Assembly (NCBI GenBank): GCA_003235555.1 | Contig: QJVY01000092.1 | Span: 17,257 to 81,256 of the forward strand | Source of the DNA: Ignavibacteria bacterium | GTDB taxonomy: Bacteria; Bacteroidota; Ignavibacteria; UBA10030; SZUA-254 | Reading direction: 5' to 3' | DNA: 64,000 nucleotides | Translations under genes and position numbers: made by a program | Notes under the pieces: generated by a model | What the model saw: the letters and a program-made list of their open reading frames with translations, nothing else | Told to the model about the DNA's origin: nothing | Database searches by the model: none | In this document: positions 5,807-26,094 of the stretch, one piece after another | Layout of the letters: each line of letters opens with the position of its first letter | Numbering within the stretch: the first letter of the stretch is position 1

Positions 5807-5838
5807 GGGTTTCTCCTGGTGATCGGTGCTGTGGTGTA

Positions 5839-6357: not shown

Positions 6358-6413
6358 AAGTACCGAAGAGAGTGCAACGGGCGTGCCAGTCCCGTCCGGG
6401 GGGCGAACGAACG

Positions 6414-6449: not shown

Positions 6450-6576
6450 GAATCCTGAAACCGGCCTGAATGGTTACTTTTTCAAGTGTGAAAATCCGGG
6501 CGGGAGTGGGCTTTCACTTGTGAGAATCAGCCCCGAATCGCATCACTTCCGGAGGGGATGTGACCGCCGGCCCCGG

Positions 6577-7458: not shown

Positions 7459-7497
7459 CTGGATCGACTCATGCCCTTGATAATCGCCCTACCCCGC

Positions 7498-8613
7498 TCA
7501 GGGTTTCCGCAGCTCCTCAAGTGAGCTCGCGAGCAGCTCCCGCGCGTACTTGGTGTTATGGATCCCTTCGCTCAGATCGTGTTCGATGAAGAAATAATTG
7601 TACAGCGCTCCCGCCTTCACCGCCGGTGTGATCAGCAGTGGCGATGACGAACTCGCGTTGACGCTGCCGCCGGCGGTGATCCACCCCCGGCTCAGCAGCT
7701 CGTCGTGCAGAGCGTCGAGCGAGTCCTCGATGCCCTGCTGGACGAGGTGCATGTCGTCGGCGGAGAAGGACGAGGGGTGGCACCCGGACTGCAGGCAGCC
7801 GGTCAGGAGGGGAACTTCCCCTCCCCCCTCAACTTCGTAGTGGATGTTCATCGTGTGGCCGCCGGCTTTGCCCGTCCCCTGCGCGGGTGGGTACGACTGT
7901 TCGGCCATGTGGCAGGTGGGGCATCCCTCCTGCATGATGACCGCGTTGGTGGTGTGATTCGAGTTCCCCGTGTACGTGTATCCGGGGAACTGGTATCCGC
8001 CGTTGCCCGAGAGCATCTGGCTCTGGACGCCGTAGTGCGAATACCACCGGCTGCTCGTGATGCGGAGGGTGTCCGTCGCTCCGGGGTTCGAGGGCATCTT
8101 CGGCGACGTCGACCGGGGCATGTGGCACTGGGCGCAGAGGTTGCCCTTCCCGTAGTCGAATGTGGCGTCGGGCACGCCGTCGATATTTGAGAGCAGCGTC
8201 ACCGGTGTCGCCTTGCGGAGCGTGAAATTTCCCCTCGAATGCGGTGAATGGCAGGCGAAGCATCCCGGGGGGCTCGGGACGTACTGGTTGGTGACGGTTT
8301 CCCCGTTCATCCGCTGCACGAAACCCTCCGATGTATGGCACCCGGCGCACGACGACCCGTTGCGCTCGCTGTCTCCGCCGTTGGCGTGTTTCGACTGCGC
8401 CCACTGGTAGGCCCGTCCTGCGATGAAATAGGTGGTATCCACATCGGGGTTATGGCAGCTGGCGCATTGTATGCCCTCGGCGAATCCCTCGAAGGCATCG
8501 GATCCGGCTCCCGGCGGACCCTGCGGCCCCGGGTCGCCCTTGCAGCCCGTCATCAGGAATGACACAATCGCCGTGATCGTCAGCGCGAGTGATAGCGTTC
8601 GCATCCTGTTCAT
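7498..8613 (-). CDS. Multiheme c-type cytochrome lipoprotein (5-6 hemes).
   Basis: Signal peptide with lipobox LMTGC. CASCH, CAGCH, CFACH, CAQCH and CPTCH, plus CX4CH (CLQSGCH). Confidence 0.85.
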   Translation of the reverse strand: MNRMRTLSLALTITAIVSFLMTGCKGDPGPQGPPGAGSDAFEGFAEGIQCASCHNPDVDTTYFIAGRAYQWAQSKHANGGDSERNGSSCAGCHTSEGFVQRMNGETVTNQYVPSPPGCFACHSPHSRGNFTLRKATPVTLLSNIDGVPDATFDYGKGNLCAQCHMPRSTSPKMPSNPGATDTLRITSSRWYSHYGVQSQMLSGNGGYQFPGYTYTGNSNHTTNAVIMQEGCPTCHMAEQSYPPAQGTGKAGGHTMNIHYEVEGGGEVPLLTGCLQSGCHPSSFSADDMHLVQQGIEDSLDALHDELLSRGWITAGGSVNASSSSPLLITPAVKAGALYNYFFIEHDLSEGIHNTKYARELLASSLEELRKP

Positions 8614-8667
8614 CGTACTCTTCTCCTCATGATAAAAATTTTCCGAAATCCTGTCCGCGGCCCGCGC

Positions 8668-9807
8668 CTACCTGCCCGAATGACAGAGTATGCACGTCGG
8701 GTCCTGTCCCTCGACGTCGTGGCACGACACGCACGATTCGATGTCGCGGCGTCCCATCTGCGCGTGCCTCCCGCCTCCCGAACCGGAGGCGATCATGACC
8801 CATCCGGCTTCGAAATGGGACTGCGGTTTGATCTTTCCCTCCGTCAGGATGCCGCCGTTCTGGTGGCAATCGGCGCAGAAGGCCTGACGATCGTGGCAGC
8901 CGGAGCAATCGATCATCCTGTTGCGGGCGTCGACCGGGTGCGTGAACCGGTAGTTCAGGTCGTGCGCCGCCTGGAGGCGGAGTTCGTCGGGCGAGTCCTT
9001 CAGGGACTGCCGGGCTCCGGGGACGGTCATCAGTCCCCTCGTCCCGCCGAAGCCCCTCAACTGGTCCCCGGTATGGCAGTCCTGGCAGAAACTTTCGGTG
9101 TGGCATGTCGAACAGGTGACGTCCATCGAGCCGAGGCGGACGGCCCTGTCGTGTTCCTTCGCGAACCCCGAGACGAGATGATTTTCGGGGATGAGGTTCG
9201 TGAAGTTCGAGTGGCACGTCTCGCAGTTCACCGACACCTGCTTTGCGGAATGGCAATCGACGCACATCGCCATCGCCGGCATGTGCGATTCTGTGCCACC
9301 CGTTCCGGAATGTGTCATTGCGCCCCCGGCGTCCCCGCCCTCACCACCATTCCCGGTGTCGACCGGGGGGAGGCCGCCGTGGCAGGTTTCGCAGGCTATG
9401 CCGCCGGTGGTCGCGTGTTTCTTGTGTGAAAAAATGAGATCCCGGGAGGGAAGGACCATGGGTTCGATCGCGTCGGGGTTCGTGTGGCAGTAGGAGCAGT
9501 CGTTCTCTATCGCCTCCCCGTGGCATGTTTCGCAGCTCTGGTGGTCCGGGATCAGCCTGTCCAGGGAGGATTCACTTTCGGGGGCGGCTGTGTGGCAGTC
9601 GGCGCAGGCGATTTCCCTCTCGACCACGTGGTTCTCATGTGAGAACATGACGCTCTTCCCGGGCTGCTGCTGTCCGGTTCTGTCCTGTGCGGCGGGTGTG
9701 GCGGCCGCGGACGGTTGTTTCATACCGGTGGCGACGAACAATATGGCAAGCGCGGAAACCGTGATGACGGCCGCGGTGTTCATGGTTTTTCTCATCCCGG
9801 GCGTCAT
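8668..9807 (-). CDS. Periplasmic dodecaheme cytochrome c.
   Basis: N-terminal signal peptide and twelve CxxCH motifs in 379 aa (CADCH, CETCH, CSYCH, CETCH, CVDCH, CETCH, CSTCH, CQDCH, CSGCH, CADCH, CVSCH, CILCH). Its start overlaps the upstream porin gene stop by 4 nt. Confidence 0.85.
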   Translation of the reverse strand: MTPGMRKTMNTAAVITVSALAILFVATGMKQPSAAATPAAQDRTGQQQPGKSVMFSHENHVVEREIACADCHTAAPESESSLDRLIPDHQSCETCHGEAIENDCSYCHTNPDAIEPMVLPSRDLIFSHKKHATTGGIACETCHGGLPPVDTGNGGEGGDAGGAMTHSGTGGTESHMPAMAMCVDCHSAKQVSVNCETCHSNFTNLIPENHLVSGFAKEHDRAVRLGSMDVTCSTCHTESFCQDCHTGDQLRGFGGTRGLMTVPGARQSLKDSPDELRLQAAHDLNYRFTHPVDARNRMIDCSGCHDRQAFCADCHQNGGILTEGKIKPQSHFEAGWVMIASGSGGGRHAQMGRRDIESCVSCHDVEGQDPTCILCHSGR

Positions 9808-11093
9808 AGTAATCCGAGCTGGTGGTGGAACCAGTAACTGACCTTCAGGAACCCCCGCAGGTCGCTGTCCATGAACCTGTTGTTCAGCATCTGGACCTGG
9901 ACATCGAAAGAGAAATGGTCGGCGGGCCTGACCACCGCCCCGAGAGATCCGGCGAACATCGTCTCATCCGGCGACCCCGCCTCGAGCCGGTAACTCGAGT
10001 AGGAAATTGCCGCGGTGGGAACGAGTTTTCTCTCGAGGAGGGGATACATCCCCTGGAGGTAGAACGAGCTCAGCTCTCCGGCGTAACCGTTGGACCCGCT
10101 GTAACTGACGGTGAAATACGTCGTGGTCAACCCCGCCGAGAGCCGGCGGCTGAGGTCTCCATCGTACCCCACGTACGCGAACCGCGCGGAGGCCCGGAGG
10201 GTGCGGGTGAACGCGTACTCCACGCCCCCCTCGTATTCCCGGACCGGCGACAGGGGAAACATGGTGAAAAACGAATTGTAGGGAACCGCGGGTTCGCGGT
10301 AGATGAAGTTCGCGAGGAAGGTGAACTGCGCGGTGATCGCGGCCCGGGCGTTGAGTTCGCCCCTGCGGGTCCGCTCGAGGTTCAGGTCGTAGTCGTAGCG
10401 GCCGTAGAACGATGTCCCGCTCCCCGCGTCGTGGGACGCGTCCACCCCGAACAGTTGCGTCGCCCTCGATCCCGGAGAAATCAGCACCATGACCGGGTTG
10501 AAGAGGGAATCCGCCCGGAGGGTTTCGTATTCCTGCCGTTCGATCCTGCGGTTCACGTAGCTCACGCCGAGGCGGGTACCCGGTGCGATTTCTCCCACCG
10601 CCTGCGCCCCGAGCAGAAAATTTTTGTCCAGGTCGCGGTTATGGTCGTAGACAAGGGAGCCCGGCACGTTCGACCCGCCGTATACTGAAAACGACAATTT
10701 GTTTTCGGCCGCCCTGATTTTGACGAAGCCGCCATCCACACCTCCGACACCCACGCCCGCGAAGACCGGCACCCGGCCAAGCCGGAGTTCAAACGTCCGA
10801 TCGCCGTTGCGATACTTCGCGAAGAGGTTCCGGACACGGAGCTCCGCCCCGTCGCCGATCGACTCGGAGAGGGACGCGGTCCCGAAGACCGACGTGGAGA
10901 GCGTGAAGTTCCCCTGGTTGACGTCCACCTGGAAATTCTGCATTCCCAGGAGAACGTTGCCGGAAGCGCCGACGGTGTCGAATTTTTCCCAGCCGTAGAG
11001 CGATGTGGAGAAGCGTCCGTTGATTTCCTGGGCGGCCGCGGGGAGGGCGAGCAGCACGATCCCGGCGACGAACGTCCGGAGTGCGGTGCGCAT
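9804..11093 (-). CDS. Outer-membrane beta-barrel protein, the putative porin of a porin-cytochrome conduit.
   Basis: Signal peptide MRTALRTFVAGIVLLALPAAAQE. Alternating hydrophobic beta-strand pattern throughout, with an aromatic C-terminal region (KVSYWF). No cofactor motifs. Start taken at the in-frame Met (11093); the ORF track extends to 11123. Confidence 0.55.
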   Translation of the reverse strand: MRTALRTFVAGIVLLALPAAAQEINGRFSTSLYGWEKFDTVGASGNVLLGMQNFQVDVNQGNFTLSTSVFGTASLSESIGDGAELRVRNLFAKYRNGDRTFELRLGRVPVFAGVGVGGVDGGFVKIRAAENKLSFSVYGGSNVPGSLVYDHNRDLDKNFLLGAQAVGEIAPGTRLGVSYVNRRIERQEYETLRADSLFNPVMVLISPGSRATQLFGVDASHDAGSGTSFYGRYDYDLNLERTRRGELNARAAITAQFTFLANFIYREPAVPYNSFFTMFPLSPVREYEGGVEYAFTRTLRASARFAYVGYDGDLSRRLSAGLTTTYFTVSYSGSNGYAGELSSFYLQGMYPLLERKLVPTAAISYSSYRLEAGSPDETMFAGSLGAVVRPADHFSFDVQVQMLNNRFMDSDLRGFLKVSYWFHHQLGLL

Positions 11094-11323
11094 GCTGGCC
11101 CCTGTGAGGGGGAATGCAATCATGAGAATGCTTTAGAAGTCCGATCGCCGAATTGGTGGTGTGACACTACCCTTACGATCATCCGAAGTGAATATCCGCA
11201 AAAAAACAAAAAGATACAATGGAAGTATTGAAGATTTTTACACTGTGCCGGGACGGATTATCGAAAATCCGACCACTTCGGTCGGAGAATAAACCTCCGG
11301 CGATATCCTTCCTCCCGGGGGTA

Positions 11324-11468: not shown

Positions 11469-13586
11469 CTATTTCAGCAGGATCATTTTCTTCACGGAAC
11501 TGAACTCCGCGGTCTGCATCCGGTAGATATAGATACCACCGGCAACATCCTTTCCCGACCCGTCCCTGCCGTCCCAGGAGACCTGGTACACGCCCGGAGC
11601 GTAAGTCCCGTCCATGAGCGTTGCGACCCTGGCACCGAGGACGTTGAAGACTTCCACCCTCACTTCGCCGCTCTTCACCATCCCCACCTTAAAGGTTGTC
11701 GTCGGGTTGAAGGGGTTCGGGTAGTTCTGCGTCAGGACGTATTCCGCGGGTAGCGGTTCGTTCCCGGAGAAATCGATCCCGGTCAACTGGTTCACCGTTG
11801 TCTGCAGGAGTCCGATCACGTATTTGGGATTGTGGGCTCCATGGCTGTGGTCCTCCACGACGTAGAGGTAGTTCCAGTAGACCTGTTTGAGGAAGACGGA
11901 ATCCGGCTCCTCACCGATCAGCGCCCGCGTGATATCGGTGCTGCCGAAGGGGGGAAGCTGCATCGCGATCATGTCGAGGAGCCCATCCACCTCGTGCATG
12001 AACGGTTCGAGCGTTCCGTCCTTGTCGTAGTCGACCGCCGCGACGATATCCGAGAACTCGGTGATCCCCGTGTGGCATTCCACGCACTTGGTCACGTTGT
12101 TGTACTCGACGGAATCCGGGCCCTCGTACTCCATGTTCCAGCTGTGACCGCCGATCTGGTCGCGTGCGACGCTGCCGGTGTCGGGCGTCGGAGACATGTG
12201 ACACCCCACGCAGAGATCATCCACGAGCCGGTGGCCGATGCTGATGGGGATCTCCTGGCCGAAGGTATACCCGTTCTGGCCGAGGAAAACATCGGTCGCG
12301 CCGCGATGGTGCGGCCCCCTGAAACTGGACGCCCGCGTGTTGGGGATGTACGATTCGGGTTCGCGACGATATTTATGACAGTTGGTGCAGAGTTTCCCCT
12401 TCCCGAAGAAAGTCTCGCCGGCATAGGAATAGCCGTTCGCGAGGGTGTCGCTCCCCGGGGGTGTGACCCGGAGTTCGGTCGAGTGGGGATTGTGGCAGGT
12501 CTGACAGGTCATTTCGGAACGTGTCAGTTTGCTGTATCCCGACGATATCCTGTTGTCGAAAGGTTCGCCCTTGGTGAAAGCGACGAATCCCCCGCCGTCG
12601 TGGCAGCGGATACAGGCATCCAGCGTGTAGTTTGTGACGAGCGTGTCCGCGTCGGAGTCGTAACTTCCCGACCACGGTGGGTTGGCATGGCCGGAATTCG
12701 ACCACATCGAATAGAAATTGTGCCGCCACGGTTCATCGTGGCATTGTCCGCACATTTCCGCTTTCATGGTCTTCGGCTGGGTGCCGGGACCGGCATGCGC
12801 CGGATTTTTCGGGCCGTGGCATTGCTCGCATCCGATCCCTGAAAGAAGGGTCATCGTTTTTTTGTCGGTTGTGAGCAGGGAATCGTAGAGACCCGGCCTC
12901 CAGGGCATCCACTGCGTGTCCACGAATCCGACCGCCTGTTGGACTTCATCGAATCCGCCGTTATTGGCGCTGAGGTTGAACCCCGTCGTATGGCATTTGA
13001 AACAGGCCTGACCCCAGTACGAGCCGTTGTCGCCGTTCATGCCCTTCTCGAATTTCTTTGCGTGCCCCGATTCCGACCATGCGGCGTACACCTCTGGCTT
13101 CACCGACGAGTGGCACGTCTTGCAGTTGAATGCGCCCCCGCCCACGTCGTGGCGGTCGACGCCGATGAAATTCGCGGCGACGATGTTCACCGACGTGTCA
13201 ACTCCGCCGATCGTCAACCGGACACTGTAGGTACCGGCAGAATCGGTGTGCAATGTCGTCCACTGTGTGGTCGTGGAATCCAAAACGGCTGCGGAACCCG
13301 CCGGTTTCGAGAGGAGCTCCCAGAGGTAATCCGCTCCCGGGGCGTAGTTCTGTCCGTCGGAAACGTCCCACCCCGAGAGGAAGACACGCGTTCCCTTCCC
13401 CACAAGTGGGAGACCGGTGGTCACGTTGTCATGCTCGTTGGGGTTTTCGAAACCCATCTCGCCGAGCCGATGGGGGCTCATCGGTTCGATCTTGATTGCC
13501 GTCGCAGTCGTCTGCGCGGACACCCCGCCGACGGCCAGGAACAGAAAGAGAATGGAAAGGGTGGAAAACAGTATCATTTTAGCCAT
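11469..13586 (-). CDS. Extracellular nine-heme c-type cytochrome with a T9SS (Por) C-terminal sorting domain; paralog 1.
   Basis: Signal peptide. CxxCH motifs CKTCH, CFKCH, CEQCH, CGQCH, CIRCH, CQTCH, CTNCH, CVGCH and CVECH. The C-terminus ...LTQNYPNPFNPTTTFKV...IYIYRMQTAEFSSVKKMILLK is a Por_Secre_tail-type CTD. Confidence 0.85.
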   Translation of the reverse strand: MAKMILFSTLSILFLFLAVGGVSAQTTATAIKIEPMSPHRLGEMGFENPNEHDNVTTGLPLVGKGTRVFLSGWDVSDGQNYAPGADYLWELLSKPAGSAAVLDSTTTQWTTLHTDSAGTYSVRLTIGGVDTSVNIVAANFIGVDRHDVGGGAFNCKTCHSSVKPEVYAAWSESGHAKKFEKGMNGDNGSYWGQACFKCHTTGFNLSANNGGFDEVQQAVGFVDTQWMPWRPGLYDSLLTTDKKTMTLLSGIGCEQCHGPKNPAHAGPGTQPKTMKAEMCGQCHDEPWRHNFYSMWSNSGHANPPWSGSYDSDADTLVTNYTLDACIRCHDGGGFVAFTKGEPFDNRISSGYSKLTRSEMTCQTCHNPHSTELRVTPPGSDTLANGYSYAGETFFGKGKLCTNCHKYRREPESYIPNTRASSFRGPHHRGATDVFLGQNGYTFGQEIPISIGHRLVDDLCVGCHMSPTPDTGSVARDQIGGHSWNMEYEGPDSVEYNNVTKCVECHTGITEFSDIVAAVDYDKDGTLEPFMHEVDGLLDMIAMQLPPFGSTDITRALIGEEPDSVFLKQVYWNYLYVVEDHSHGAHNPKYVIGLLQTTVNQLTGIDFSGNEPLPAEYVLTQNYPNPFNPTTTFKVGMVKSGEVRVEVFNVLGARVATLMDGTYAPGVYQVSWDGRDGSGKDVAGGIYIYRMQTAEFSSVKKMILLK

Positions 13587-13663: not shown

Positions 13664-13811
13664 TTGAAAATTTCAACACTTTTGGGGAAATTGGCGAGTT
13701 TTTATACTCTGAAAAGGGGGGAATTTCTCAAATCTGAGGAGTTGGGTGTGTTAACCCTCTGATGCACGGATCGGGGCGGAAGGACCCCCTTTCGGGGATA
13801 TCATGGGTGGA

Positions 13812-13952: not shown

Positions 13953-16052
13953 TCATTTCAGCAGGATCATCTTCTTCACGGAGCTGAATTCCGCGGTCTT
14001 CATCCGGTAGATATAGATGCCGCCCGCCGCATCCTTTCCGGAGACATCCTTGCCGTCCCACGTTACCTGGTAGACGCCGGGAGGATAGGTCCCCTCCATG
14101 AGTGTCGCAACCCGGGCGCCCAGGACGTTGAACACCTCAACCGTGACCTCTCCCCCCTTCGCCATCCCCACTTTCATGGTCGTGGTCGGGTTGAAGGGGT
14201 TCGGGTAGTTCTGCGTCAGGATATACTCCGACGGAACCGGCTCGTGGCCGCTGAAATCCACGCCCGTGAGGTTGCTGAGGGTCACCTGGAGCAAACCGAT
14301 GATATATTTCGGGTTGTGCGCCCCCTTGCTGTTGTCTTCCTTCACGTACGCGTAGTTGTAGTAGACCGCTTTCATCCGCGCGGAATCGGGATCCGCTTCG
14401 ATCAGGGCGAAATCGATGTCCGTGCTTCCGAACGGCGGCAGCCCCAGCTCCACCATTTCGAGGAGGCCTTCGACTTCCATCTGGAAGGGTTCGGTGGTGC
14501 CGTCCATGTCGTAGTCGAAGCCCGCGACGATATCGCTGAACTTGGTGATACCGGTATGGCACTCGACGCACTTGGTGATGTTGTCGTACTCGACTCCACC
14601 TTCGACATACTTCTGCGTCCAGCTGTGGCCGCCGATCTTGTCGCGGGCCACGGTGCCGGTATCCGCCGTCGCCGACATGTGGCAACCGACGCAGAGGTCG
14701 TCCACCAGCCTGTGGCCGATGCTGTTGGTCAGCGTCTGGCCGAAGGTGTAACCATTCTGCCCGAGGATAACGTCGGCCGCGCCCCGGTGGTGCGGACCGA
14801 AGTGGCTGGAGAGGCGCCCGAGGACGTATGTTTCAGCGTCCCTCCGGTATTTATGGCAGTTGACGCAGATCTTGCCCTTGCCGAAGTTGAACGCCGAGTA
14901 GTCGTACCCGTTGCCCAGAGTATCGCTGGCGGCGGGGGCAACTCTCAACGAAGCATCGTGCGGATCATGGCATGTCTGGCAGTTGATCTTCGTGTGCGTC
15001 AGTTCGCCATATCCCGACGAAATCCGGTTGTCGAAGGGTTCGCCCTTCGTGAACGCCACGAAACCCGCGCCGTCGTGACAGCGGATGCAGGTGCTCAGGC
15101 CGTATTCGGTGACCGGGTTGGCGCCGTCGCTGTCGAAACTACCCGACCAGACCGCCTCGGCGTGGACCGAGTTTTCGAATTCGGAGACCTTGTTGTGCCG
15201 CCACGGTTCGTCGTGGCACTGTGCACAGAGAAGGAAGTCCATCGATTTGGGCTGCGTCCCGGCTCCCGCGTGCGCGGGGTTTTTCGGACCGTGGCAGTTT
15301 TCACAGCCGATACCGGCGACCATGCTCAGCTTGGCCTGGGGGGTGGTGAGCAACGAATCATAGAGGCCGGCCCTCCAGGGTGTCCACTCGGTGTCCACGA
15401 ATCCGAGCGCCTGGGCGACGTCGTCGAACCCGCCGTTGTTCGCGAACTCGTTGTAACCGACCGTGTGGCATCCCCAGCAGGACGGACCCCAGTGGTCGCC
15501 CCACACGTTGTTCAATCCGTTCTCCCACATCATCGCGTGCCCGGAACCGCTCCACTTGCTGACGATCTCGGGGGTGGCCCCGTTGTGGCATGTGAGGCAG
15601 TTGAACGCCCCGCCGCCCACGTTGTTCCTGTCGGCTCCGATGTAGTTGGCCGCAATGATATTGATGCTCGTGTCCTTGCCGCCGATCGTCAGTTTCACGG
15701 TGTAGGTTCCGGCCGAATCGGTATGCAGTGAGGTCCATTGCATCGTGGTCGAATCGAGTATCGCCGCCGAGTTCGCCGGCCGCGCGGTCAGCTCCCAGAG
15801 GTAATCTGCCCCCGGCAGGAACTCATCACTACTGACGTCCCAGCCCGAGAGGTACACCCAGGTGCCTTTTCCCACGACGGGCAGGCCCGACGTCGTGTTA
15901 CCGGCGCCGTTGGCGGATTCGAACCCCATCGTCTCGAGACTATGAGGGGTCAGCGCCTCGATCCTGATGGCAGTCCGCTGGGCGAAGAGATCTCCCCCGG
16001 TTGCGACCAGGATACACATCATGATTACCGCAAACAGTATCGATTTTTTCAT
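13953..16052 (-). CDS. Extracellular nine-heme c-type cytochrome with T9SS C-terminal sorting domain; paralog 2.
   Basis: 699 aa, collinear with 11469-13586. Nine CxxCH motifs. The CTD ...LTQNYPNPFNPTTTMKV...KKMILLK is near-identical to that of paralog 1. Confidence 0.85.
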   Translation of the reverse strand: MKKSILFAVIMMCILVATGGDLFAQRTAIRIEALTPHSLETMGFESANGAGNTTSGLPVVGKGTWVYLSGWDVSSDEFLPGADYLWELTARPANSAAILDSTTMQWTSLHTDSAGTYTVKLTIGGKDTSINIIAANYIGADRNNVGGGAFNCLTCHNGATPEIVSKWSGSGHAMMWENGLNNVWGDHWGPSCWGCHTVGYNEFANNGGFDDVAQALGFVDTEWTPWRAGLYDSLLTTPQAKLSMVAGIGCENCHGPKNPAHAGAGTQPKSMDFLLCAQCHDEPWRHNKVSEFENSVHAEAVWSGSFDSDGANPVTEYGLSTCIRCHDGAGFVAFTKGEPFDNRISSGYGELTHTKINCQTCHDPHDASLRVAPAASDTLGNGYDYSAFNFGKGKICVNCHKYRRDAETYVLGRLSSHFGPHHRGAADVILGQNGYTFGQTLTNSIGHRLVDDLCVGCHMSATADTGTVARDKIGGHSWTQKYVEGGVEYDNITKCVECHTGITKFSDIVAGFDYDMDGTTEPFQMEVEGLLEMVELGLPPFGSTDIDFALIEADPDSARMKAVYYNYAYVKEDNSKGAHNPKYIIGLLQVTLSNLTGVDFSGHEPVPSEYILTQNYPNPFNPTTTMKVGMAKGGEVTVEVFNVLGARVATLMEGTYPPGVYQVTWDGKDVSGKDAAGGIYIYRMKTAEFSSVKKMILLK

Positions 16053-16132: not shown

Positions 16133-16329
16133 CGGTGACGGCCTGTACAAAAAATGTTTGGGGAGCTGAATTACGGTGGAAGGATGCCGGGGAGAAGAAA
16201 GTGATCAATACACCGCCGGATCGGTGTCGAAATTTTCAACAACCTCTGGATGAAGGGAAGTCCCCCACTCTCGGGGGGAATCCTGTTCTCACACCTGAAA
16301 GGGGGTGGGGGTAATGGGTTAAAATCCCC

Positions 16330-16393: not shown

Positions 16394-16936
16394 TTATTTC
16401 TTCGGAACCCGGTGCTCGATCTGCGGCCACATCTTGGCGTATTCGAATTTCTTCGCCGTCGGGCTCTTCTCGTTGTGGCATGTGACACAGAGCGCCGTGA
16501 TCGCCTTCTCGTCCTCGTACATCAACAGGCCGGCTTTTTCGGCTTTCTTCGCGTCCTTCATCGTCGCCATGTTCTTGTATCCAGATCCTGCACCGTGGCA
16601 CGATTCACACTGTACACCGTCCTTGACGTCGAATTTCTTGTCGAGCAGTTTGGCATCGGCGGTGATCGTGTGGCATCCCAGACACTCGGGTGTTTCAACG
16701 GCCTTCGTCTTGAATCCCTTCTTGGTGGCGATGGCGTCCGCTTCCTTCGTCAGGAGCACACTGTAGGCCTCGGAGTGTTTGCTCTTCGACCAGATCTCGA
16801 ATTGTTTACCCTGCTTTTCAGTATTGTGGCACATCTTGCACGTCGTCGTGCCCACGTATGTGTTCTGGGCGCTCGTGAGGGATGACAACACGAAGATGAG
16901 GCCGGCCAGGAGGGCGATGATTGTGAATCTGCTCAT
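16394..16936 (-). CDS. Periplasmic tetraheme c-type cytochrome.
   Basis: Signal peptide MSRFTIIALLAGLIFVLSSLTSAQ. CKMCH, CLGCH, CESCH and CVTCH in 180 aa. Confidence 0.8.
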   Translation of the reverse strand: MSRFTIIALLAGLIFVLSSLTSAQNTYVGTTTCKMCHNTEKQGKQFEIWSKSKHSEAYSVLLTKEADAIATKKGFKTKAVETPECLGCHTITADAKLLDKKFDVKDGVQCESCHGAGSGYKNMATMKDAKKAEKAGLLMYEDEKAITALCVTCHNEKSPTAKKFEYAKMWPQIEHRVPKK

Positions 16937-17216: not shown

Positions 17217-17633
17217 TCAATTCACGGAGTTCAGGATCTTCCGGACGAGTGAAACCATAAAGTTGAGGTTGAACGGTTTTTCAACGAAATAGTCCACCAT
17301 CCTGCTTTTCCCCACCTCTTCGAGTGACTCCTCCCCGTGTTCGATCGCCAGTACGAGGGGGGTCCTCCCCGAGATCGTCTTGATCCGCACCGCAAGTTCC
17401 AGGCCGTCCATCCCGGGGAGGTGGTAGTCGCTGATCACAAGGTCGACCGGTCCCTCGTTGAATTTCCGGAGAGCATCCTCGCCGCATTCCACGACATCTG
17501 GATCATAGCCGGCGCGCCCGAGGGCGTTCGCCATTGACCAGCCCAGGAGCGCTTCGTCTTCGACGATCAGGATCTTCTTGACATCCCGTGAGGGTACGGG
17601 TGGCGGGAGGGAATATGGTGAATTATTCAGCAC
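17217..17633 (-). CDS. Stand-alone response-regulator receiver (CheY-like).
   Basis: KKILIVEDE...DLVISDYHLPGMDGLEL...K receiver motifs. 138 aa with no output domain. Confidence 0.75.
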   Translation of the reverse strand: MLNNSPYSLPPPVPSRDVKKILIVEDEALLGWSMANALGRAGYDPDVVECGEDALRKFNEGPVDLVISDYHLPGMDGLELAVRIKTISGRTPLVLAIEHGEESLEEVGKSRMVDYFVEKPFNLNFMVSLVRKILNSVN

Positions 17634-17667
17634 CGTAACCGGTTGCGATCTGTGTGCGTACAGGAAG

Positions 17668-17682
17668 GCAAACTTTATGCCA
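17668..17682 (-). promoter_or_regulatory. Sigma-54-type promoter for the stand-alone receiver gene.
   Basis: Minus-sense TGGCATaaagtTTGC, 35-49 nt upstream of the start at 17633. Confidence 0.45.
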
Positions 17683-17804
17683 CCGCCAGAAAGGGGGATT
17701 GAGGCGTGGGTGTATGGTTATCGGCCGGTGGCGCGTAAGGGCACTGATCGTGATGACCCGTTTGTGTCAAATCACCCAGAGAGAGGCTCCGGTGCCGCGG
17801 ATGG

Positions 17805-19165
<1,361 letters not shown>

Positions 19166-19166
<1 letters not shown>

Positions 19167-20689
19167 TACGATTTGTCCTTCGCGATCTCCCCGGGATCGA
19201 CGGGGAGGCGTACACGGCAGGTCGTCCCTGCCTGGTCCCCGCTTTCGAGGGAGATGGTACCATGGTGCTGTTCAACGATGCGCCGGGAGATGGTCAGCCC
19301 CAGACCGGTCCCCTGGTGCTTGGTCGTGTAGAACGGCCTGAAAATATTTTCACGTTCGGCCGGGGCGATCCCCTTCCCGGTGTCGCGGACGGTCACCGTC
19401 ACCGACCCGTTCCCGCCCTCGGTCGCGACGCTCACCCGCCCACCGTCGTCGGCGGCCTGCACGGCGTTTAAAATGACGTTCCAGAGGAGCTGCTGGAGGA
19501 GTTTCCTGTCCGCCGTCAGCCGCGGCAGCTCCCTGTCGAGCGACAGGTCGACCGTCACGTTTTTCTTCAACGCCTGCGAGGTCATGATCGAGACCGTCCG
19601 GTCGATGATGCCGTTCAGGTCGGTGAGGTCGAACCTGGGCGGGGAGGGCCTCGCGTAGCTCAGCAGGTCGTTGACCGCGAGGTTCATCCGCTCCATCTGC
19701 ACCATCATCTCCTGGAGTATCGGTTTGTTCGGGTCGACGTCGGCCAGGTCTGAATCGATCACCTGGAGCGCCCCCAGGACCCCCGCCAGCGGGTTTCGGA
19801 TTTCATGCGCCATGCTGGCCGCCATCTCACCGGTGGTCGCCAGCCGGTCGGCGTGCTCCAGCTGTTCATGGTGGAGTTGATGGAGGCGCCCGTGGGCCTC
19901 GTTCAACCGCTCCACCAGTGTGTTGAACGTGGTGATCAGGTCGGAAATTTCATCGTTTCTCGGAGACGGTTCCAGCGTGGAAAAAATCACCGGCTGCCCC
20001 TTTTCGACCCCCGCCAGCTGGTTCTGCAGCGTCCCCATCCGCTGCCGCAGAGTGGAAACGGGCCGGATCACCAGGACGAGCAGCGCCCCGGAAATGACCA
20101 GGCCGATTCCGCCGAACGTCACGATCGTCATCAGGATGTTCATCGTCCGGTGGTTCATGGACGCCTCCTGGATGTGGCCCATGGTGATCTTGACGGCCAT
20201 GTATCCGAGGACAGGTGCGGTGCCCGCGTGACATCCCGAGCAGCTCGGTTTCCTCTCGAGCGGCGTGAGGACGTACTGGAAGGGGGTCCCATCTTCCGTC
20301 CGCGAGAGGAACATCCCCCCGGGGAAACCTTCGCTCTCCCGGTACTCCGAGATCCGGAAGACCCGTCCGGAACTGTCCGGTACCGTGCTCACGCTGATTC
20401 CACCGTCGGGTTTGAGTAAGAACAGTGCCGCGATGTGGCCGGTGGAGTCTATCGTCCGCATGGCCGCCTGGAGGTGACTTTTTTCACCCTGGAGCATCAT
20501 GAATTCCACCACCCCCCTGCCGTACCGTGCGAGCGTGTACGCCTTGTCCCGTCCGTACTCGTTCAACATCTCCGTGCCCGTCCTGTAGGCGAAGTACGCG
20601 AAGCTGCCGCCGGCCACGACCAGGGCCGCCGCGACCGCCGCGATCATCTTCCGCCCGACGGAGTTGAATATTCGGGGGAGCATGGTCAT
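19166..20689 (-). CDS. Sensor histidine kinase with a heme-c (CxxCH) motif in its periplasmic sensor domain.
   Basis: TM1 at about residues 15-35 and TM2 at about 183-208 flank a ~145-aa periplasmic domain containing CSGCH. The cytoplasmic part carries HisKA (HEIRNPL) and HATPase_c. The start overlaps the ccmF stop by 4 nt, and the stop overlaps the NtrC start by 1 nt. Confidence 0.85.
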
Positions 20690-22944
20690 ACCATGGTCAC
20701 TGCGTCCGACTTCAGCCGTTTGACAAATGCGAGCAGGGTACCCCCGATGATGAACACGACGCCCGTCCAGAGCACCATCATCATCGGGATCATGCTGACA
20801 TCCAGCAGGAGCGCGGTGTTCTGCGGGGAGGACTCGTCCCCCTCGAAACCATGGAATTCCAGCAGGATTTTTTTGGCCTCGACCTGCATGCCGGCCAGGA
20901 TGACCTGGGGTTGCACCGTCCCCTTCGAGGGGTTGACCAGGGCCGGCAGGTCGACGGGCCCCGATTCCCGTTCACCGTTGCGGTTGAACGCGACCGTGGG
21001 GACGACGGAGTGGTCGTTCCCGTGGACGGGAACGTTGAGAACCGCTCCCACCATCATCGCGCCGGACTCGCTGTGCTGGGTCATGTCGAACTTCCGGAAC
21101 TCGATCTCGTAGCCATTGATGGATTTCTTCTCCCCCATGACGAGCTCCAGGGACGGATGGTTGTGGCCGCCCCCCGAACCCTGAAGTTCCATCGGGGAGA
21201 GGTAGAGGTCCTTGAGGGGCAGGACCCTGATGTGCGGCTCGCGCATGACACCCTTGTTGTATTCGCTGTAATAGAGTTTCGGCGTGGCCGCGAACTTCGA
21301 GACCCCGTCGGAGATTTCCAGGACGACGACGTTTTTCGCGTCGGGGGCCGGCTCCATGCCCCTGAAGGTGACGTCATAGCCGAACACACTCTGAGGCTCG
21401 TTCTCCTTCAACAGCACCTTCCGTGATTCCGTGAAGTTCCCCGATCCGACGATCCCGAGCATCAGCAGGGCCGCTCCGATGTGGCCGATCGGCCCGCCGA
21501 GCCCCAGGAACCCTGAGCGGTACTGCCTGAATGCAATGATCGAATTGCTGATCAGCGCGAATGCCGACATCGCGGTGAACAGGAGCATCATCGGCTCGGT
21601 GACGCCGGCCACGAACGCGATGACACCCCCAAGGACCGTCAGCACCAGCGGCAGGGAAAGCCGCCTCAGCAGCGACGCGGTATTGTCCCCCGCCCAGCCG
21701 AGAAAGGGTGTCACGCCCAGCAGGAGCGCCATCACGATCGCCACCGGCAGGTTGACCCTGTTGTAGAAGGAGATGTCCACCTGGGATGCCTTTCCCACCA
21801 GCCCGGTGAGGATCGGCGACGACATTCCGACGAAGGTGAACGCCGCGCAGGCCGAAAGCGCGTAGATGCTGAGCACGAGGAAGATTTCCCGGTAGAACGA
21901 GTGGTGGTCCACCGGCGGCGATTTGATTTCCCGGAACCGCCTGAAAAACATCCCGAATCCGAAGAGCGCTGTCGCCAGCATGACCGCGACGAGGTAGTTG
22001 TTGATTCCGAGGTCGACGAAGGAGTGCACGGAAAAATCCGCGAGGACACCGCTGCGGGTCAGGAAGGTCGCATAGAGGACCAGTAAAAAAACGATGATGG
22101 CGAGGAACATGTTCGTCCGCCGGAGGGACCCCCTTCCCCTCTCGACGACCATTCCGTGGATGAGCGCCAGCATCATCAGCCAGGGGACCAGGGAGGAATT
22201 TTCCACCGGGTCCCACCCCCAGTACCCGCCCCATCCCAGGACTTCGTAGGCCCAGAATCCTCCGATGATGATCCCCGCGCCGAGCATGGTCCCCGCAAAG
22301 AGCGTCCATCTGAACCCGAACGTCTTCCAGGCATCGTATTTCCGCGTCGTGAGGCCGGCCATCACGAGCGCGAAGGGAAAGATCGCCGCGGCGTAGCCCA
22401 CGAACAGAATCGGCGGATGGATGGCCATCCAGGGGTCCTGCAGGAGTGGGTTCATCCCCTGCCCGTCCGGCGGTACCATCTTTGTCATCTCGAACGGGCT
22501 CTGTACCAGCATCAGGAGATGTAAAAACGCGATATAGAGGCACACCACCGCGGGCGCGACCCCGGACCTGATCCCCTGCTTATGGATTAAAACGAGTCCC
22601 ATCAGCGCCACCATCAGGGCCCAGAGGAGGAATGTTCCTTCCTGTCCCGCCCAGAAAGAGGAGATGAGGTAGAGCATCGGCAGCGAACGTGAACTGTAAT
22701 GCGCCACGTAGGCGTATTCGAAGGAGTGGGTGAGGAGATGATAGTAGAGCAGGATCGACGAAGCGATGACCGACACGGTCGCGACGTGGTAGAGCTGTAT
22801 CGCGGCACGCGGCGGCGTCCCCCCTCTATTCCCCCTTTGCGCCCGGTTTTTCGGGTCCTGTCTGCCCGGTGCGGTGAAGAAAAACCACGCGGCGCCGAGC
22901 GACGCCAGGAACGTGATGAGTATGGTCAACTGGCCGGAATTCAT
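20686..22944 (-). CDS. ccmF: Cytochrome c-type biogenesis heme lyase CcmF/NrfE family.
   Basis: Polytopic, 752 aa. Diagnostic CcmF motifs: WAGQEGTFLLWA, NPLLQDPWMAIHPPILFVGY and the WWD region WAYEVLGWGGYWGWDPVENSSLVPWL, followed by a CcmF C-terminal domain. Confidence 0.85.
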   Translation of the reverse strand: MNSGQLTILITFLASLGAAWFFFTAPGRQDPKNRAQRGNRGGTPPRAAIQLYHVATVSVIASSILLYYHLLTHSFEYAYVAHYSSRSLPMLYLISSFWAGQEGTFLLWALMVALMGLVLIHKQGIRSGVAPAVVCLYIAFLHLLMLVQSPFEMTKMVPPDGQGMNPLLQDPWMAIHPPILFVGYAAAIFPFALVMAGLTTRKYDAWKTFGFRWTLFAGTMLGAGIIIGGFWAYEVLGWGGYWGWDPVENSSLVPWLMMLALIHGMVVERGRGSLRRTNMFLAIIVFLLVLYATFLTRSGVLADFSVHSFVDLGINNYLVAVMLATALFGFGMFFRRFREIKSPPVDHHSFYREIFLVLSIYALSACAAFTFVGMSSPILTGLVGKASQVDISFYNRVNLPVAIVMALLLGVTPFLGWAGDNTASLLRRLSLPLVLTVLGGVIAFVAGVTEPMMLLFTAMSAFALISNSIIAFRQYRSGFLGLGGPIGHIGAALLMLGIVGSGNFTESRKVLLKENEPQSVFGYDVTFRGMEPAPDAKNVVVLEISDGVSKFAATPKLYYSEYNKGVMREPHIRVLPLKDLYLSPMELQGSGGGHNHPSLELVMGEKKSINGYEIEFRKFDMTQHSESGAMMVGAVLNVPVHGNDHSVVPTVAFNRNGERESGPVDLPALVNPSKGTVQPQVILAGMQVEAKKILLEFHGFEGDESSPQNTALLLDVSMIPMMMVLWTGVVFIIGGTLLAFVKRLKSDAVTMV

Positions 22945-23037
22945 GATGTATTCTCGTGATCGGTATTGGAGTGCACGTCTTCATTCGAGGGAAAGCGACA
23001 TCAAAATCCAGAATTTCTTCCCTTTCCGGGCAATAAT

Positions 23038-23052
23038 GCAATCTTTATGCCA
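23038..23052 (-). promoter_or_regulatory. Sigma-54-type promoter for the ccmF-kinase-NtrC operon.
   Basis: Minus-sense TGGCATaaagaTTGC, about 95-108 nt upstream of the ccmF start at 22944. Confidence 0.45.
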
Positions 23053-23202
23053 GAGCGGGATATCGGTCAGGACGGGTGGGTTTTTTCACCCACCCCCGGC
23101 GGAGGGGGCCCTTTTTTTCAGCGGTGAAAAATATTACATCAAAACGATCTCAGAAATGACTCGGACTCGGTATATCGAAATGGAGGGGATGATCAGGTCG
23201 GG

Positions 23203-24564
23203 CTATTTTTCGGTCGATATGGAAAGTTCTTTGATCCTACGGTATAACGTGGGCAGGCTGATTTGAAGTGATTTCGCCGTCTTTTCCTTGTCGAAATCGT
23301 TTTTCCTGAGGACGGCGACGATGTATTCCCTGGCGAGGTCGTTCACCACCTGGTCGAGGGATTTGTCCCCGTCGGCGGAGGGGACGGGCGGATAATTGTG
23401 GAAGGTGTCGGGGAGATCGGCAACGGTAATGGAGTCCCCCTTCGCGAAGATGACCGCACGCTCCACGATATTCTCCAGTTCCCGGACCTCCCCTCTCCAC
23501 GGGTGGTGGATCAGCAGGCGCATGACCTCCTGGTCGACCCCCTGCATCTTTCTGCCCATCTCCGACGAAAATTTTTCGAGGAAATGGTTGACCAGTATCG
23601 GGATGTCTTCCTTTCTTTCCGTCAGCGACGGCAGCCGGATTTCGACAATGTTGAGACGGTAGAAGAGGTCCTCGCGGAACCTTCCTGCTTCGATTTCTTT
23701 GCGGAGGTCCCGGTTGGTCGTCGCGATGAACCTCACGTCGACGGCCTGGGGTTCCGACGTCCCCACCGGAACGATTTCCTTCTGCTCGATCGCGCGCAGG
23801 AGTTTCACCTGGAGCTGGACCGGCATCTCGCTGATCTCGTCGAGCAGGAGCGTTCCCCCGTCGGCGGCCTTGAAGTAGCCCCCGCGGTCGGCGAGCGCCC
23901 CGGTGAAGGATCCTTTTTTATGGCCGAAGAGTTCGCTCTCGATGAGAGATTCGGGGATCGCGCCGCAGTTGACCGCGATGAAGGGCCTGTCGGCCCGCGG
24001 GCTGTTGGCATGGACCGCCCTCGCCACCATCTCCTTCCCCGTTCCGCTCTTCCCGGTGATGAGGACGGTCCCGTCGGTCGCCGAGATCCGCCGGACCGTG
24101 TCGAAGATCCGTTCCATCGCGGGACTCTGCCCGATGAGGTTCTTGAAGTCCACCCCACCGCTCGCTTCCTCGCGAAGGTACTGGTTTTCCCAGATGAGTT
24201 TCCTGTGCTCGAGCAGCCGCCGGATTTTGAGAGTGAGCTCGTCGAATTCGATCGGCTTCAGGATGTAGTCGTTCGCACCCTTGCGCAGCGCCGCGATAGC
24301 GGTCTCCATCGACCCGTACGCGGTGATGATCACGACGATGGTCTGGGGGCTGAGCTCCTTGATTTTTTCGAGGAGTTCCATCCCCTTCATTTCCGGCATC
24401 TCGAGGTCGGTGATCACCAGGTCGTACGATTTTTCGACGAACTTGTCGTAGGCCACCCTCCCGTTCGGGGCCTCCTCGACGCGGAACCCCTCCTTCTTCA
24501 GGATGAACGATGCGGATTCCCTGATGATCTGTTCGTCGTCGACGATGAGTATCGTGTCTGCCAT
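23203..24564 (-). CDS. Sigma-54-dependent response regulator (NtrC family), second copy.
   Basis: Receiver domain (ILIVDDE..DLVITDLEMP), then an AAA+ sigma-54 activator domain (GKSGTGKE..), then HTH. 453 aa. Confidence 0.9.
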   Translation of the reverse strand: MADTILIVDDEQIIRESASFILKKEGFRVEEAPNGRVAYDKFVEKSYDLVITDLEMPEMKGMELLEKIKELSPQTIVVIITAYGSMETAIAALRKGANDYILKPIEFDELTLKIRRLLEHRKLIWENQYLREEASGGVDFKNLIGQSPAMERIFDTVRRISATDGTVLITGKSGTGKEMVARAVHANSPRADRPFIAVNCGAIPESLIESELFGHKKGSFTGALADRGGYFKAADGGTLLLDEISEMPVQLQVKLLRAIEQKEIVPVGTSEPQAVDVRFIATTNRDLRKEIEAGRFREDLFYRLNIVEIRLPSLTERKEDIPILVNHFLEKFSSEMGRKMQGVDQEVMRLLIHHPWRGEVRELENIVERAVIFAKGDSITVADLPDTFHNYPPVPSADGDKSLDQVVNDLAREYIVAVLRKNDFDKEKTAKSLQISLPTLYRRIKELSISTEK

Positions 24565-24591
24565 GGTTATCGCTTGATGATGTGCACGGTG

Positions 24592-26094
24592 TCAGATGTC
24601 CGTCTTCCGGGGAGCAGCGGGACGCCCGGGCGCCCCCGGCTGCGGTTTCACGCCCCCGTGGAGCGGCAGTGTGATCGTAAATGTCGTCCCCTCCCCCACG
24701 AGGCTGTCCACCCGGATTTCTCCATCGAAACTCTTGATGATCCCGTAACTGATCCAGAGACCGAGGCCGGTGCCCTCCCCCACCTGTTTCGTCGTGAAGA
24801 ACGGCTCGAAGATCTTGGCGAGGTGTTCGTCGCTGATCCCCCTGCCGTTGTCCGAGATTTCGGTGACGACGGAGTCCCCGTCGGCGCGGGTCCTGCAGAT
24901 GATTTTCCCCGTCCGTTCTCCGGGCGGCACCGCCGCGAATTTATCATCCACCGCGTCCACGGCGTTGATCAGTACGTTAACGAACACCTGCTGGATCTGG
25001 TCCGAGACCACCGCCAGGCGCGGCAGGTTGTCCGCGGTGTGGACTTCGAGGGCGACCGTTTTCGCCTTCCTGGCCACACCGACGATGGCGGTCGCTTCCC
25101 GCAGGCACGCGTTGACGTCCGTCAGCTGGATTTCGTAGTTCGAGCGGCGGGAGAAATCGACCAGGTCACGGATGATCCGCGATATCCTGTTCACCTGGTT
25201 TTTGATGAGTTCAAGCTTGTCCCGCGTGAAGGCGTCCTCGGTCGTCCTTTCCAGCACCTGCACCAGCGAGGAGATGGACGTGAGCGGATTGCCCACTTCG
25301 TGCGCGATTCCGGCCGTCAGCAATCCCATGCTCTCCATCTTCTGCGCCTGGAGGAGATGCTTCTCGAGGGATTTCTGTTCGGTGATGTCCCGGTGGATGC
25401 CGAAATATCCGACCACCGTACCGTCGCCGTCGAGGATCGGCGAAATCAGCAACTGTGTATGGAATGGTTCCCCGCCGCGTTTCCGGTTCTCCACCTCCCC
25501 CGTCCAGACCTTCCCGGCCTTGATGGTCTCCCACATCTTCTTCCAGAATATCGCGGGGTGTTTCCCGCTGGAAAAGATGTTCGGGTTCCTGCCGATGAGT
25601 TCCGCGCCGGAATACCCGCTCGCGGCCTCGAATGCGGGGTTGACGTAGATGATCCGGCCTTCGGGGTCAGTGATTTCGAGGGGGTTGACGGTGTGGTGTG
25701 CGAGGTTCGAAAACCTCAGGAAGTCGAGGTCTTTCTTCTTCTCTTCCGATATATCGCGGCCGATAGCCAGGATGACGGCTCCGTGGTCTCCCTTCAGGGG
25801 GGAAAACGAAAACGACACTACCCGTTCGTCCCCGTCATCCCCTGCGAGCGTCAATTCGGTCCCGTCCGTACCACCGGTCCCGGACTCGTCCATCGCCCTC
25901 CTGAAAGCCGCCCGTGTCGATGGTGAGAGGAACTCCTCCATAGACCTGCCCGCAGGACTCATCCTCCCTGCTCCGAGGGTCTTCATGGTGGTGGTGTTCA
26001 GGTGCACGATGGAGCCGTCGGGGTTCAGGAGGAGGCAGAAATATGGAATTGCGTCGAGCAGGGATACCGGGATGGAATCCCGTCTCGCGCTCAT
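24592..26094 (-). CDS. PAS-domain sensor histidine kinase (cytoplasmic).
   Basis: Two PAS-like regions, HisKA ([10 protein letters not shown]) and HATPase_c. No TM segments. Lies immediately upstream of the NtrC-type regulator. Confidence 0.85.

Follow-up and report, generated by a model that had tools for sequence, protein, structure and literature searches.

Streamlined System I, the form of the cytochrome c maturation pathway that has a CxxxY-type CcmE and lacks CcmH and CcmI, was reportedly described by Allen et al. in 2006 from archaea and Desulfovibrio-type bacteria. Here we describe a gene for its heme lyase, ccmF, in a stretch of 64,000 nucleotides (nt) of an Ignavibacteria bacterium (GenBank assembly GCA_003235555.1, contig QJVY01000092.1, positions 17,257 to 81,256 of the forward strand), referred to below as the window. 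In the window ccmF is followed by genes for a putative heme-c sensor histidine kinase, an NtrC-type activator of sigma-54 promoters (NtrC2) and a CheY-like receiver. In our best explanation, the locus provides the regulators and the maturation gene at the core of a cytochrome-rich supercluster for respiration or extracellular electron transfer in the Ignavibacteria lineage. We think it fairly probable that it represents a sigma-54 regulon of electron-export cytochromes, one that includes the general CcmF of a streamlined System I and is controlled by the pair formed by the heme-c Cache kinase and NtrC2.

The streamlined CcmABCEF system with its CxxxY-type CcmE works without CcmH, and in the model for it a stand-alone CcmF does the job of CcmF/H (PMC9084895). 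The system described here resembles it in the long CcmF, the WWD motif, four histidines, the CxxxY motif of the CcmE proteins of relatives and the absence of ccmH from the flanking genes that were clustered or annotated. It differs in that ccmF lies apart from ccmABCE, among the genes of cytochrome operons; in the window, ccmF is preceded by a separate sigma-54 promoter and coupled to a two-component system. A CcmF-family gene in or next to the operon of its presumed substrate cytochromes also recalls NrfE of Escherichia coli (nrfEFG) and SirE of Shewanella. However, the CcmF of the window scores below the model cut-off (267 versus 569 bits), has no NrfF or NrfG partners and has no CXXCK or CX15CH site nearby, and the comparative data favor a general over a dedicated lyase here.

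The sensor domain of the kinase shares with the sCache_heme domains (PF11845, Tll0287-like/DUF3365; PF21563, Geobacter GSU0582/GSU0935; PMC12889525) an extracytoplasmic single Cache domain, one CXXCH and fusion to a kinase. The branch found in the window, in contrast, falls below the Pfam thresholds, has an invariant Met65 and His180, and has lost the motif in about 10% of its members, whereas the preprint gives a loss of about 1% for PF11845 (PMC12889525). The activator is like NtrC, AtoC and ZraR in its REC, AAA+ and Fis-type helix-turn-helix domains, its strong model matches, its AtoS/ZraS-like kinase partner and promoters with GG-N10-GC spacing. Unlike them, it lies below all equivalog cut-offs and has a GAFTDA loop, and the genes that it would control encode multiheme cytochromes, a porin-like protein, the receiver and CcmF. 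The neighboring genes resemble the porin-cytochrome conduits of Geobacter in having a beta-rich protein of 439 amino acids, a 4-nt gene overlap, a 12-heme periplasmic cytochrome and lipoprotein cytochromes. They differ in that the porin assignment is a deduction, the protein having no Pfam or NCBIfam match, and in the additional 9-heme cytochromes with sorting tails of the type IX secretion system (T9SS). Porin-cytochrome clusters have been reported in Ignavibacteria genomes, and these bacteria have repeatedly been found on anodes and in iron-cycling sediments (PMC7399161). A search of the accessible literature found nothing on the regulation or maturation of such clusters in this phylum. Each component is of a known kind, while the arrangement and the sensor subfamily appear to be undescribed in the searchable literature.

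All coordinates below refer to the whole window, and the four genes of interest are all on the minus strand. The first, ccmF (20686-22944), encodes a System I cytochrome c heme lyase of 752 amino acids, the long version that accompanies streamlined CcmABCEF. It scored 113.7 bits against PF01578 (Cytochrom_C_asm; cut-off 29.9) and 62.5 bits against PF16327 (CcmF_C; cut-off 28.7), and aligned with the CcmF of Thermus thermophilus (6ZMQ) at E = 1e-70. The WWD motif (WGxxWxWD), in CcmF proteins a feature of a periplasmic loop, had also served as a scan pattern in gathering the CcmF relatives; it reads WGGYWGWD at residues 238-245 and was invariant in 74 aligned relatives. H176, H263, H307 and H488 were likewise invariant (74 of 74 sequences) and align to 6ZMQ as the two histidines that flank the WWD motif and the two transmembrane ligands of heme b. 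Judged by its Pfam domains, the 6ZMQ match, the WWD motif and the four histidines, the predicted protein is a genuine and intact CcmF. Its best NCBIfam matches were the CcmF/NrfE models, all below cut-off (TIGR00353, 266.6 bits versus 569), and since the scores fall so far short, the protein belongs to a divergent branch, whose homologs came from metagenome-assembled genomes of Ignavibacteria/Bacteroidota. NCBI records for several members (P0021, P0037, P0058 and others) carry the System II name 'cytochrome c biogenesis protein CcsA'. Because this branch has the CcmF C-terminal domain and matches the Thermus CcmF, that label is an annotation trap for pathway reconstruction. Two relatives (P0061 and P0210) carry a ResB Pfam mark. 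Since the C-terminal extension of the CcmF has no cysteine motif, the idea that it plays a CcmH-like role was rejected.

The kinase gene (19166-20689, 507 amino acids), the NtrC2 gene (17805-19166, 453 amino acids) and the receiver gene (17217-17633, 138 amino acids) follow ccmF in that order, and high GC content at third codon positions confirmed the coding frames of all four. The stop codon of ccmF and the start codon of the kinase gene share ATGA, a 4-nt overlap, while the kinase stop and the activator start share 1 nt. These open reading frames and overlaps are as given in the preliminary description of the locus, and both overlaps are kept in the orthologous locus L001 (74% identical). 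The sigma-54-type promoter of ccmF, TGGCATAAAGATTGCA (23037-23052, minus strand), lies 92 nt upstream of the start codon. That of the receiver gene, TGGCATAAAGTTTGCC (17667-17682, minus strand), can also be read as TGGCATAAAGTTTGC (17682-17668). Both had been proposed at these positions and both are present. Compared with TGGCAC-N5-TTGCW, the two sites (23052-23037 and 17682-17667) have T for C at the sixth base, the second also ends in C, and the spacing between GG and GC is 10 nt.

The strict pattern TGGCAY-N5-WTGCW occurred three times in the window, where 0.03 occurrences were expected by chance. A weighted scan gave six sites (23052, 17682, 17065, 16132, 13663 and 6388), every one of them on the coding strand, intergenic and upstream of a minus-strand gene: ccmF, the receiver gene, three cytochrome genes and a hemerythrin gene. 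A site upstream of the receiver gene was kept in all six loci compared (the window, L001 and L087-L090), and most of the loci compared had a site before the first downstream cytochrome gene; a promoter belonging to ccmF itself was present only in the window and L001. TTGT in place of TTGC at -12 was seen in several putative promoters of the clade (L001 9889, L003 15335, L090 13661). Within the ccmF-kinase-activator block we found only weak terminator-like hairpins, at chance frequency (18 found versus 13.9 expected for the region), and the one strong terminator (16368-16338) follows a 4-heme cytochrome gene. No RNA family of Rfam was matched anywhere in the window, and rpoN itself was not seen. 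The overlaps, the promoter site and the chance-level hairpins support the proposal that ccmF, the kinase gene and the activator gene form one sigma-54-driven, translationally coupled unit that would be co-transcribed, as had been suggested previously.

The kinase has a first transmembrane segment, a periplasmic heme-c Cache-like domain (residues ~34-186), a second transmembrane segment, and HAMP, HisKA and HATPase domains. Its single CSGCH (residues 150-154; C150, C153, H154) lies between the two hydrophobic segments, in the extracytoplasmic domain. An exhaustive HMMER search with residues 36-184 returned a small family, 32 representative clusters at 50% identity in 1.84 billion. Nearly all of them are kinases of about 500 amino acids in which the domain has a constant location, and CXXCH occupies one and the same position in 31 of the 32. 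The motif is kept in 101 of 112 full-length kinase orthologs; the segment has been replaced in ten, and the remaining one is frameshifted. The periplasmic heme-binding motif that the preliminary description had pointed out is thus a hallmark of the family. An alignment of 42 CXXCH-bearing members showed M65, C150, C153, H154, H180 and N184 to be invariant, and Met65 and His180 are candidate distal heme ligands. In these 42 members, sub-threshold Pfam matches were found to PF11845 (29 of 42, best E = 0.0015) and PF21563 (26 of 42, best E = 6e-5); the kinase of the window itself had no PF11845 match and only a weak one to PF21563 (E = 0.12). A PDB sequence search with the sensor domain gave nothing significant, and its placement comes from the profile matches of its relatives and a fold search, which point to a single Cache (PDC) fold in which a short helix, inserted between beta strands, bears the CXXCH. 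On this basis the domain is assigned to a divergent small branch of the sCache_heme domains, and by all sequence signs it would bind heme c covalently. According to the sCache_heme preprint, kinase-fused members behaved as nitric oxide (NO) sensors and stand-alone members as redox proteins (PMC12889525). The heme-less variants (P0355, P0356, P0366, P0368, P0371, P0377, P0378, P0382, P0383 and P0385) are natural ones and retain both the remainder of the Cache domain and their genomic setting.

NtrC2 matched the Pfam models for REC (Response_reg, E = 3.6e-28), Sigma54_activat (4.3e-68) and HTH_8 (1.8e-15). The loop that contacts sigma-54, canonically GAFTGA, reads GAFTDA in NtrC2 of the window and in all seven orthologs examined (including L001, L003 and L087-L090), so that the F and T are kept. 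The receiver gene encodes a REC domain only, with orthologs at the same position in L001 and L087-L090. Upstream of ccmF, and also on the minus strand, lies a second two-component pair (23203-26094) made up of a cytoplasmic double-PAS kinase (24592-26094) and another NtrC-type activator, NtrC1 (23203-24564). The loop of NtrC1 is GSFTGA in the window, and NtrC1 proteins have GSFTGA or GAFTGA. NtrC1 has orthologs in L001 (81%) and L007 (65%), and the L007 activator is 41% identical to NtrC2.

Two kinds of candidate operator were found upstream of the promoters. The palindrome TTTTCA-N4-TGAAAA, here UAS1, occurs as TTTTCAGCGGTGAAAA (23115-23130), with some 78 nt between it and the -24 element of ccmF downstream, and is a candidate NtrC1 site. 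It is perfect there and at 6479-6494, the hemerythrin promoter has a second copy at 6511-6526, and with up to two mismatches allowed the window contained nine sites versus 0.73 expected. One copy of the palindrome likewise comes shortly after the NtrC1 ortholog of L001, and two come after that of L007, ahead of the sigma-54 promoter that serves the entire Rieske/cytochrome b/ccmF operon there. This palindrome, which tracks NtrC1, may therefore mark an input that the preliminary description had not included, with NtrC1 and the double-PAS kinase acting through TTTTCA-N4-TGAAAA. The second candidate is TGGGTGAWWW, which occurs only twice in the window (23092-23083 and 17778-17769), upstream of the two near-identical promoters of ccmF and the receiver gene. 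The first copy, TGGGTGAAAA, is contained in an inverted repeat, GGGTGGGTG-AAAAAA-CCCACCC (23074-23096, minus strand), between UAS1 and the promoter; the second, TGGGTGATTT (17769-17778, minus strand), lies upstream of the receiver promoter. Both are candidate NtrC2 sites. The same motif, often as an inverted pair, is found after ntrC2 or before receiver or cytochrome promoters in L001, L003 and L087-L090, and in L001 also before the ccmF promoter. A strict inverted-repeat pattern for TGGGTGA had no match in the window, and what the data support is a half-site whose position is conserved, rather than a perfect palindrome. It was proposed earlier that the module controls the neighboring cytochrome genes and its own operon through sigma-54 promoters. 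The six promoter sites make the former probable, and the recurrence of TGGGTGAWWW upstream of the ccmF and receiver promoters and after ntrC2 in six related loci makes the latter plausible. NtrC2 would then act on its own operon and on the receiver and cytochrome promoters.

In a neighbor-joining tree, the CcmF of the window and those of L001, L003, L005 and L007 formed one clade whose members never adjoined ccmE, separate from the ccmE-linked CcmFs of Ignavibacteria and Melioribacter, to which they are 32-37% identical. In L003, L005, L007, L087, L089 and L090 the window-type ccmF is the last gene of an operon encoding a NapC/NirT-like 6-heme cytochrome, a Rieske protein, a cytochrome b and an 11-heme membrane-anchored cytochrome. 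The kinase and activator genes come after it in the window, L001/L002, L003/L004, L087, L089 and L090, and in most of these the receiver gene and then multiheme cytochrome genes come next. The 120 best CcmF matches and the 120 best kinase matches apparently shared 21 contigs, and ccmF and the kinase gene were adjacent in all seven loci opened. The NapC-like/Rieske operon is not in the window. In both the window and L001 the Rieske/cytochrome b part is gone from this position and ccmF has its own sigma-54 promoter instead. Judged from gene order, the supercluster is composed of two modules that are usually neighbors, one a bc-type complex with ccmF and the other the kinase-NtrC-receiver triad with the outer cytochromes, and ccmF would be ancestrally the last gene of the NapC-like/Rieske/cytochrome b/11-heme operon and unlinked from ccmABCE in this clade. 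The NapC/NirT-like cytochrome, of about 498 amino acids, has a non-canonical CX3CH site (CGETCH, residue 130) beside six CXXCH, and this site was invariant in all six loci (gene coordinates: L003 5354-6850, L005 2750-4243, L007 5471-6970, L087 3179-4675, L089 3212-4708 and L090 3187-4683).

Searches of the 64 kb by tblastn with CcmB, CcmC and CcmE found no homolog, in agreement with the absence of other ccm genes noted earlier. A scan of species-representative genomes for CcmF proteins of about 750 amino acids gave at least 80 loci from many phyla, with a single close relative (L007, 52%) among the matches listed. In 51 of the loci listed, a CcmE gene lies closely, and usually directly, upstream of ccmF, with ccmC, ccmB and ccmA often before it. 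All 51 of these CcmE proteins have CPSKY, CPTKY or CPSRY, and no ccmH was seen among the flanking genes that were clustered or annotated. Because the System I of related phyla is CcmABCEF with a CxxxY-type CcmE, a missing ccmH is expected rather than peculiar. In L090, on the same contig as a window-type ccmF, genes for CcmC (PF01578, 230 amino acids) and CcmE (PF03100) lie about 7 kb downstream of the receiver gene on the same strand, the sequence ending 47 nt into ccmE; at least one genome with a window-type ccmF thus has System I partners. The notion of a lone CcmF was overstated, given the CcmH-free System I of the phylum and the ccmC-ccmE genes on the L090 contig. A sigma-54-like site, TGGCACAAAGGTTGTT, at L090 20602-20617, 32 nt upstream of ccmC, hints that ccmC and ccmE are in the same regulon there.

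Metagenome contigs were also scanned with the CcmC of L090, and the results were pooled with those of the earlier genome loci. In 81 loci ccmC-ccmE was followed by ccmF, and in eight loci with enough downstream sequence it was not. The ccmF-less loci cluster in the CcmC tree, where the L090 CcmC groups with L091 (its closest metagenomic relative, 78% identical; unrelated metabolic genes follow ccmE) and with L097, in which ccmE is followed by a homolog (5609-6358) of the 439-amino acid porin-like gene of the window. A second ccmF-less CcmC clade has a GC content of 0.39-0.46, like the low-GC loci with a window-type ccmF, and the ccmF-less L105 has a GC content of 0.61, like the window. Clusters of ccmABCE or ccmCE not followed by ccmF were seen on the metagenome contigs L091, L105, L132, L144, L150, L152 and L161. 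Since ccmF-less clusters group with the L090 CcmC, these data favor the window-type ccmF as a general, unlinked lyase. It is probably the general, and possibly the only, CcmF of the lineage, moved into the cytochrome supercluster and dependent on CcmABCE encoded elsewhere.

Under this reading, the kinase would use its heme to sense either the redox state of the periplasm or a small ligand of the heme, for instance NO, and would phosphorylate NtrC2. NtrC2 might then activate the sigma-54 promoters of the receiver gene, of the multiheme cytochrome and porin genes and, by positive feedback, of its own operon, with the PAS kinase/NtrC1 pair adding a second input through TTTTCA-N4-TGAAAA. The six neighboring cytochromes of the window contain 45 CXXCH and two CX4CH sites, and the net effect would be that heme-attachment capacity rises with the ~47-heme load of the regulon.

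The preliminary description had reasoned differently, placing the lyase in the operon because the kinase needs covalently attached heme, so that ccmF and the kinase would be a dedicated maturation and sensing pair. The 4-nt overlap of the two genes in the window and L001, their widespread adjacency in the clade and the retention of CXXCH in about 90% of kinase orthologs are what such a pairing would predict, but the comparison of loci runs against it. Two of the ten CXXCH-less kinase genes, in the complete clusters of L089 (10001-11524) and L090 (10001-11518), still lie 34-38 nt downstream of ccmF, and two more are on the same contig as a ccmF. In L005 and L007, ccmF has neither a kinase nor an NtrC2 gene after it, and in L088 the kinase, NtrC, receiver and cytochrome genes occur without ccmF, with unrelated genes upstream. 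In addition, the kinase motif is a canonical CXXCH that should be within reach of any System I, and the neighboring genes hold some 47 other heme sites. The lyase does not track the heme site of the kinase, and a lyase kept for the sensor is disfavored to the point of being very unlikely. At the other extreme, the genes might be adjacent without functional coupling, the sigma-54-like sequences being inactive, other promoters being used and the arrangement being a neutral remnant of cluster rearrangement. Rearrangement did happen, as the loss of the Rieske/cytochrome b part from the locus indicates; the L001 ccmF promoter is degenerate at -12, and promoter activity here is predicted from sequence. 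Against this stand six intergenic sigma-54 sites in the correct orientation, with about 0.03 expected for the strict pattern, the conserved positions of the promoters for the receiver and cytochrome genes among loci whose proteins share 39-77% identity, two sigma-54 activators encoded at the locus, and the overlapping start and stop codons conserved in L001. We consider such a chance neighborhood hardly credible.

A more substantial alternative is that the window-type CcmF is a specialized second lyase, an NrfE/SirE-like paralog beside a housekeeping ccmABCEF, that serves the CX3CH heme (CGETCH) of the NapC-like cytochrome or the CX4CH hemes of the lipoprotein cytochromes. There is precedent for this, in that NrfEFG serves CXXCK and the SirEFG of Shewanella serves CX15CH, and the CGETCH site is invariant in six of six NapC-like neighbors while the cytochromes encoded at 7498-8613 and 6577-7458 have one CX4CH each. 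It would also account for the depth at which the window-type CcmF diverges from its ccmE-linked counterparts in Ignavibacteria and Melioribacter, which fall in a separate clade and are 32-37% identical to it. System I is, however, generally able to mature CX3CH and CX4CH sites, no NrfF- or NrfG-like genes were found in the Pfam annotation of the neighbors, the ccmF-less ccmABCE/ccmCE clusters form clades that include the L090 CcmC, and the window keeps ccmF even though the NapC-like/Rieske operon is not there. Clusters of ccm(AB)CEF do exist in other Ignavibacteria, and Melioribacter roseus has a CcmF (PMC5492636). No contig was common to the 120 best matches of a ccmE-linked Ignavibacteria/Bacteroidota CcmF and the window-type list, a result to which the size of the family leaves little weight. 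We regard a specialized lyase as possible, though on balance doubtful. It is also conceivable, and in our view unlikely, that maturation capacity is itself the regulated output of a heme-sensing circuit, with the only CcmF transcribed from an activator-dependent sigma-54 promoter alongside a kinase that could not signal until CcmF had supplied it with covalently attached heme. Formation of the holo-sensor would then be a checkpoint tying transcription of the ~47 heme sites, and of ccmC-ccmE in some relatives, to working machinery; in a variant, the NapC-like quinol dehydrogenase has an invariant CX3CH heme to which the lyase would be specialized.

Several points weigh against the reading that we prefer, that of a general CcmF within a cytochrome regulon. 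The presence of ccmABCE and of a single ccmF is argued from the relatives L090, L091 and L105, and the window-type CcmF has diverged further (32-37% identity) than the corresponding CcmC proteins, the L090 CcmC being 62-66% identical to those of clusters with a ccmE-linked ccmF, so that a paralog or xenolog fits as well as a relocated ortholog. If a sole ccmF were expressed in a purely activator-dependent way, all cytochrome c maturation would be conditional, and basal or read-through transcription would be needed. Co-transcription and the use of the promoters are deduced from sequence features, and the ccmF promoter of L001 has TTGT for TTGC at -12. Two copies of TGGGTGAWWW are weak evidence by themselves, since eight of 100 shuffled sequences reached two, and the pairing of candidate motifs with activators derives solely from their co-location. 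The locus offers a testable circuit with two sigma-54 activators, a small branch of heme-c Cache kinases, a conserved receiver, candidate operators and a heme lyase gene in the same regulon. It also adds examples of CcmABCEF systems with ccmF outside the ccm cluster, which are relevant to the balance between lyase supply and cytochrome load. Its value lies in a defined regulon and a previously unrecognized sensor subfamily rather than in a new principle, and no part of it is unprecedented.

The neighboring cytochrome genes follow the receiver gene on the same minus strand, and none of their products in the window has a CXXCK or long-spacer (CX15CH) heme site. The first gene (16394-16936) encodes a 4-heme c554-like cytochrome, with its sigma-54 site at 17065-17050 and the strong terminator after it. 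Next come two paralogous 9-heme cytochromes of 699 and 705 amino acids in tandem (13953-16052 and 11469-13586), preceded by sigma-54-type sites at 16132-16117 and 13663-13648. Both have FlgD-Ig and T9SS C-terminal sorting domains, which suggests type IX export to the cell surface. An AT-rich palindrome, TTGAAA(A/T)TTTC(A/G)A (TTGAAAWTTTCRA), was seen at 13664-13676 and 16227-16239, near these two promoters. The copy at 13664 abuts the -24 element and might be an IHF-like or activator site, there being too few copies to judge.

Downstream of the 9-heme genes is a porin-cytochrome-like block (6577-11123), made up of the secreted 439-amino acid protein with its signal peptide and beta-rich sequence (9804-11123), the 12-heme cytochrome (8668-9807) and the two lipoprotein cytochromes with lipoboxes (7498-8613 and 6577-7458). 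The block is orthologous in L090, at 49-51% identity. The hemerythrin gene (5839-6357) has a consensus sigma-54 site at 6388-6373 and tandem UAS1 palindromes (6479-6494 and 6511-6526). The site lies about 16 nt before the annotated start, which suggests that the start codon is mis-set or that the transcript is nearly leaderless. Directly past the cytochrome cluster, and on its strand, are a phosphate acetyl/butyryl-transferase gene and a gene of the acetate kinase family (3536-5560). On the other side of the locus, upstream of the PAS kinase/NtrC1 pair, the segment 26245-29039 encodes a Haem_bd protein (PF14376), in which CXXCH occurs once, and a DUF5916 protein of 740 amino acids; the two genes are syntenic in L001 (2951-5688).

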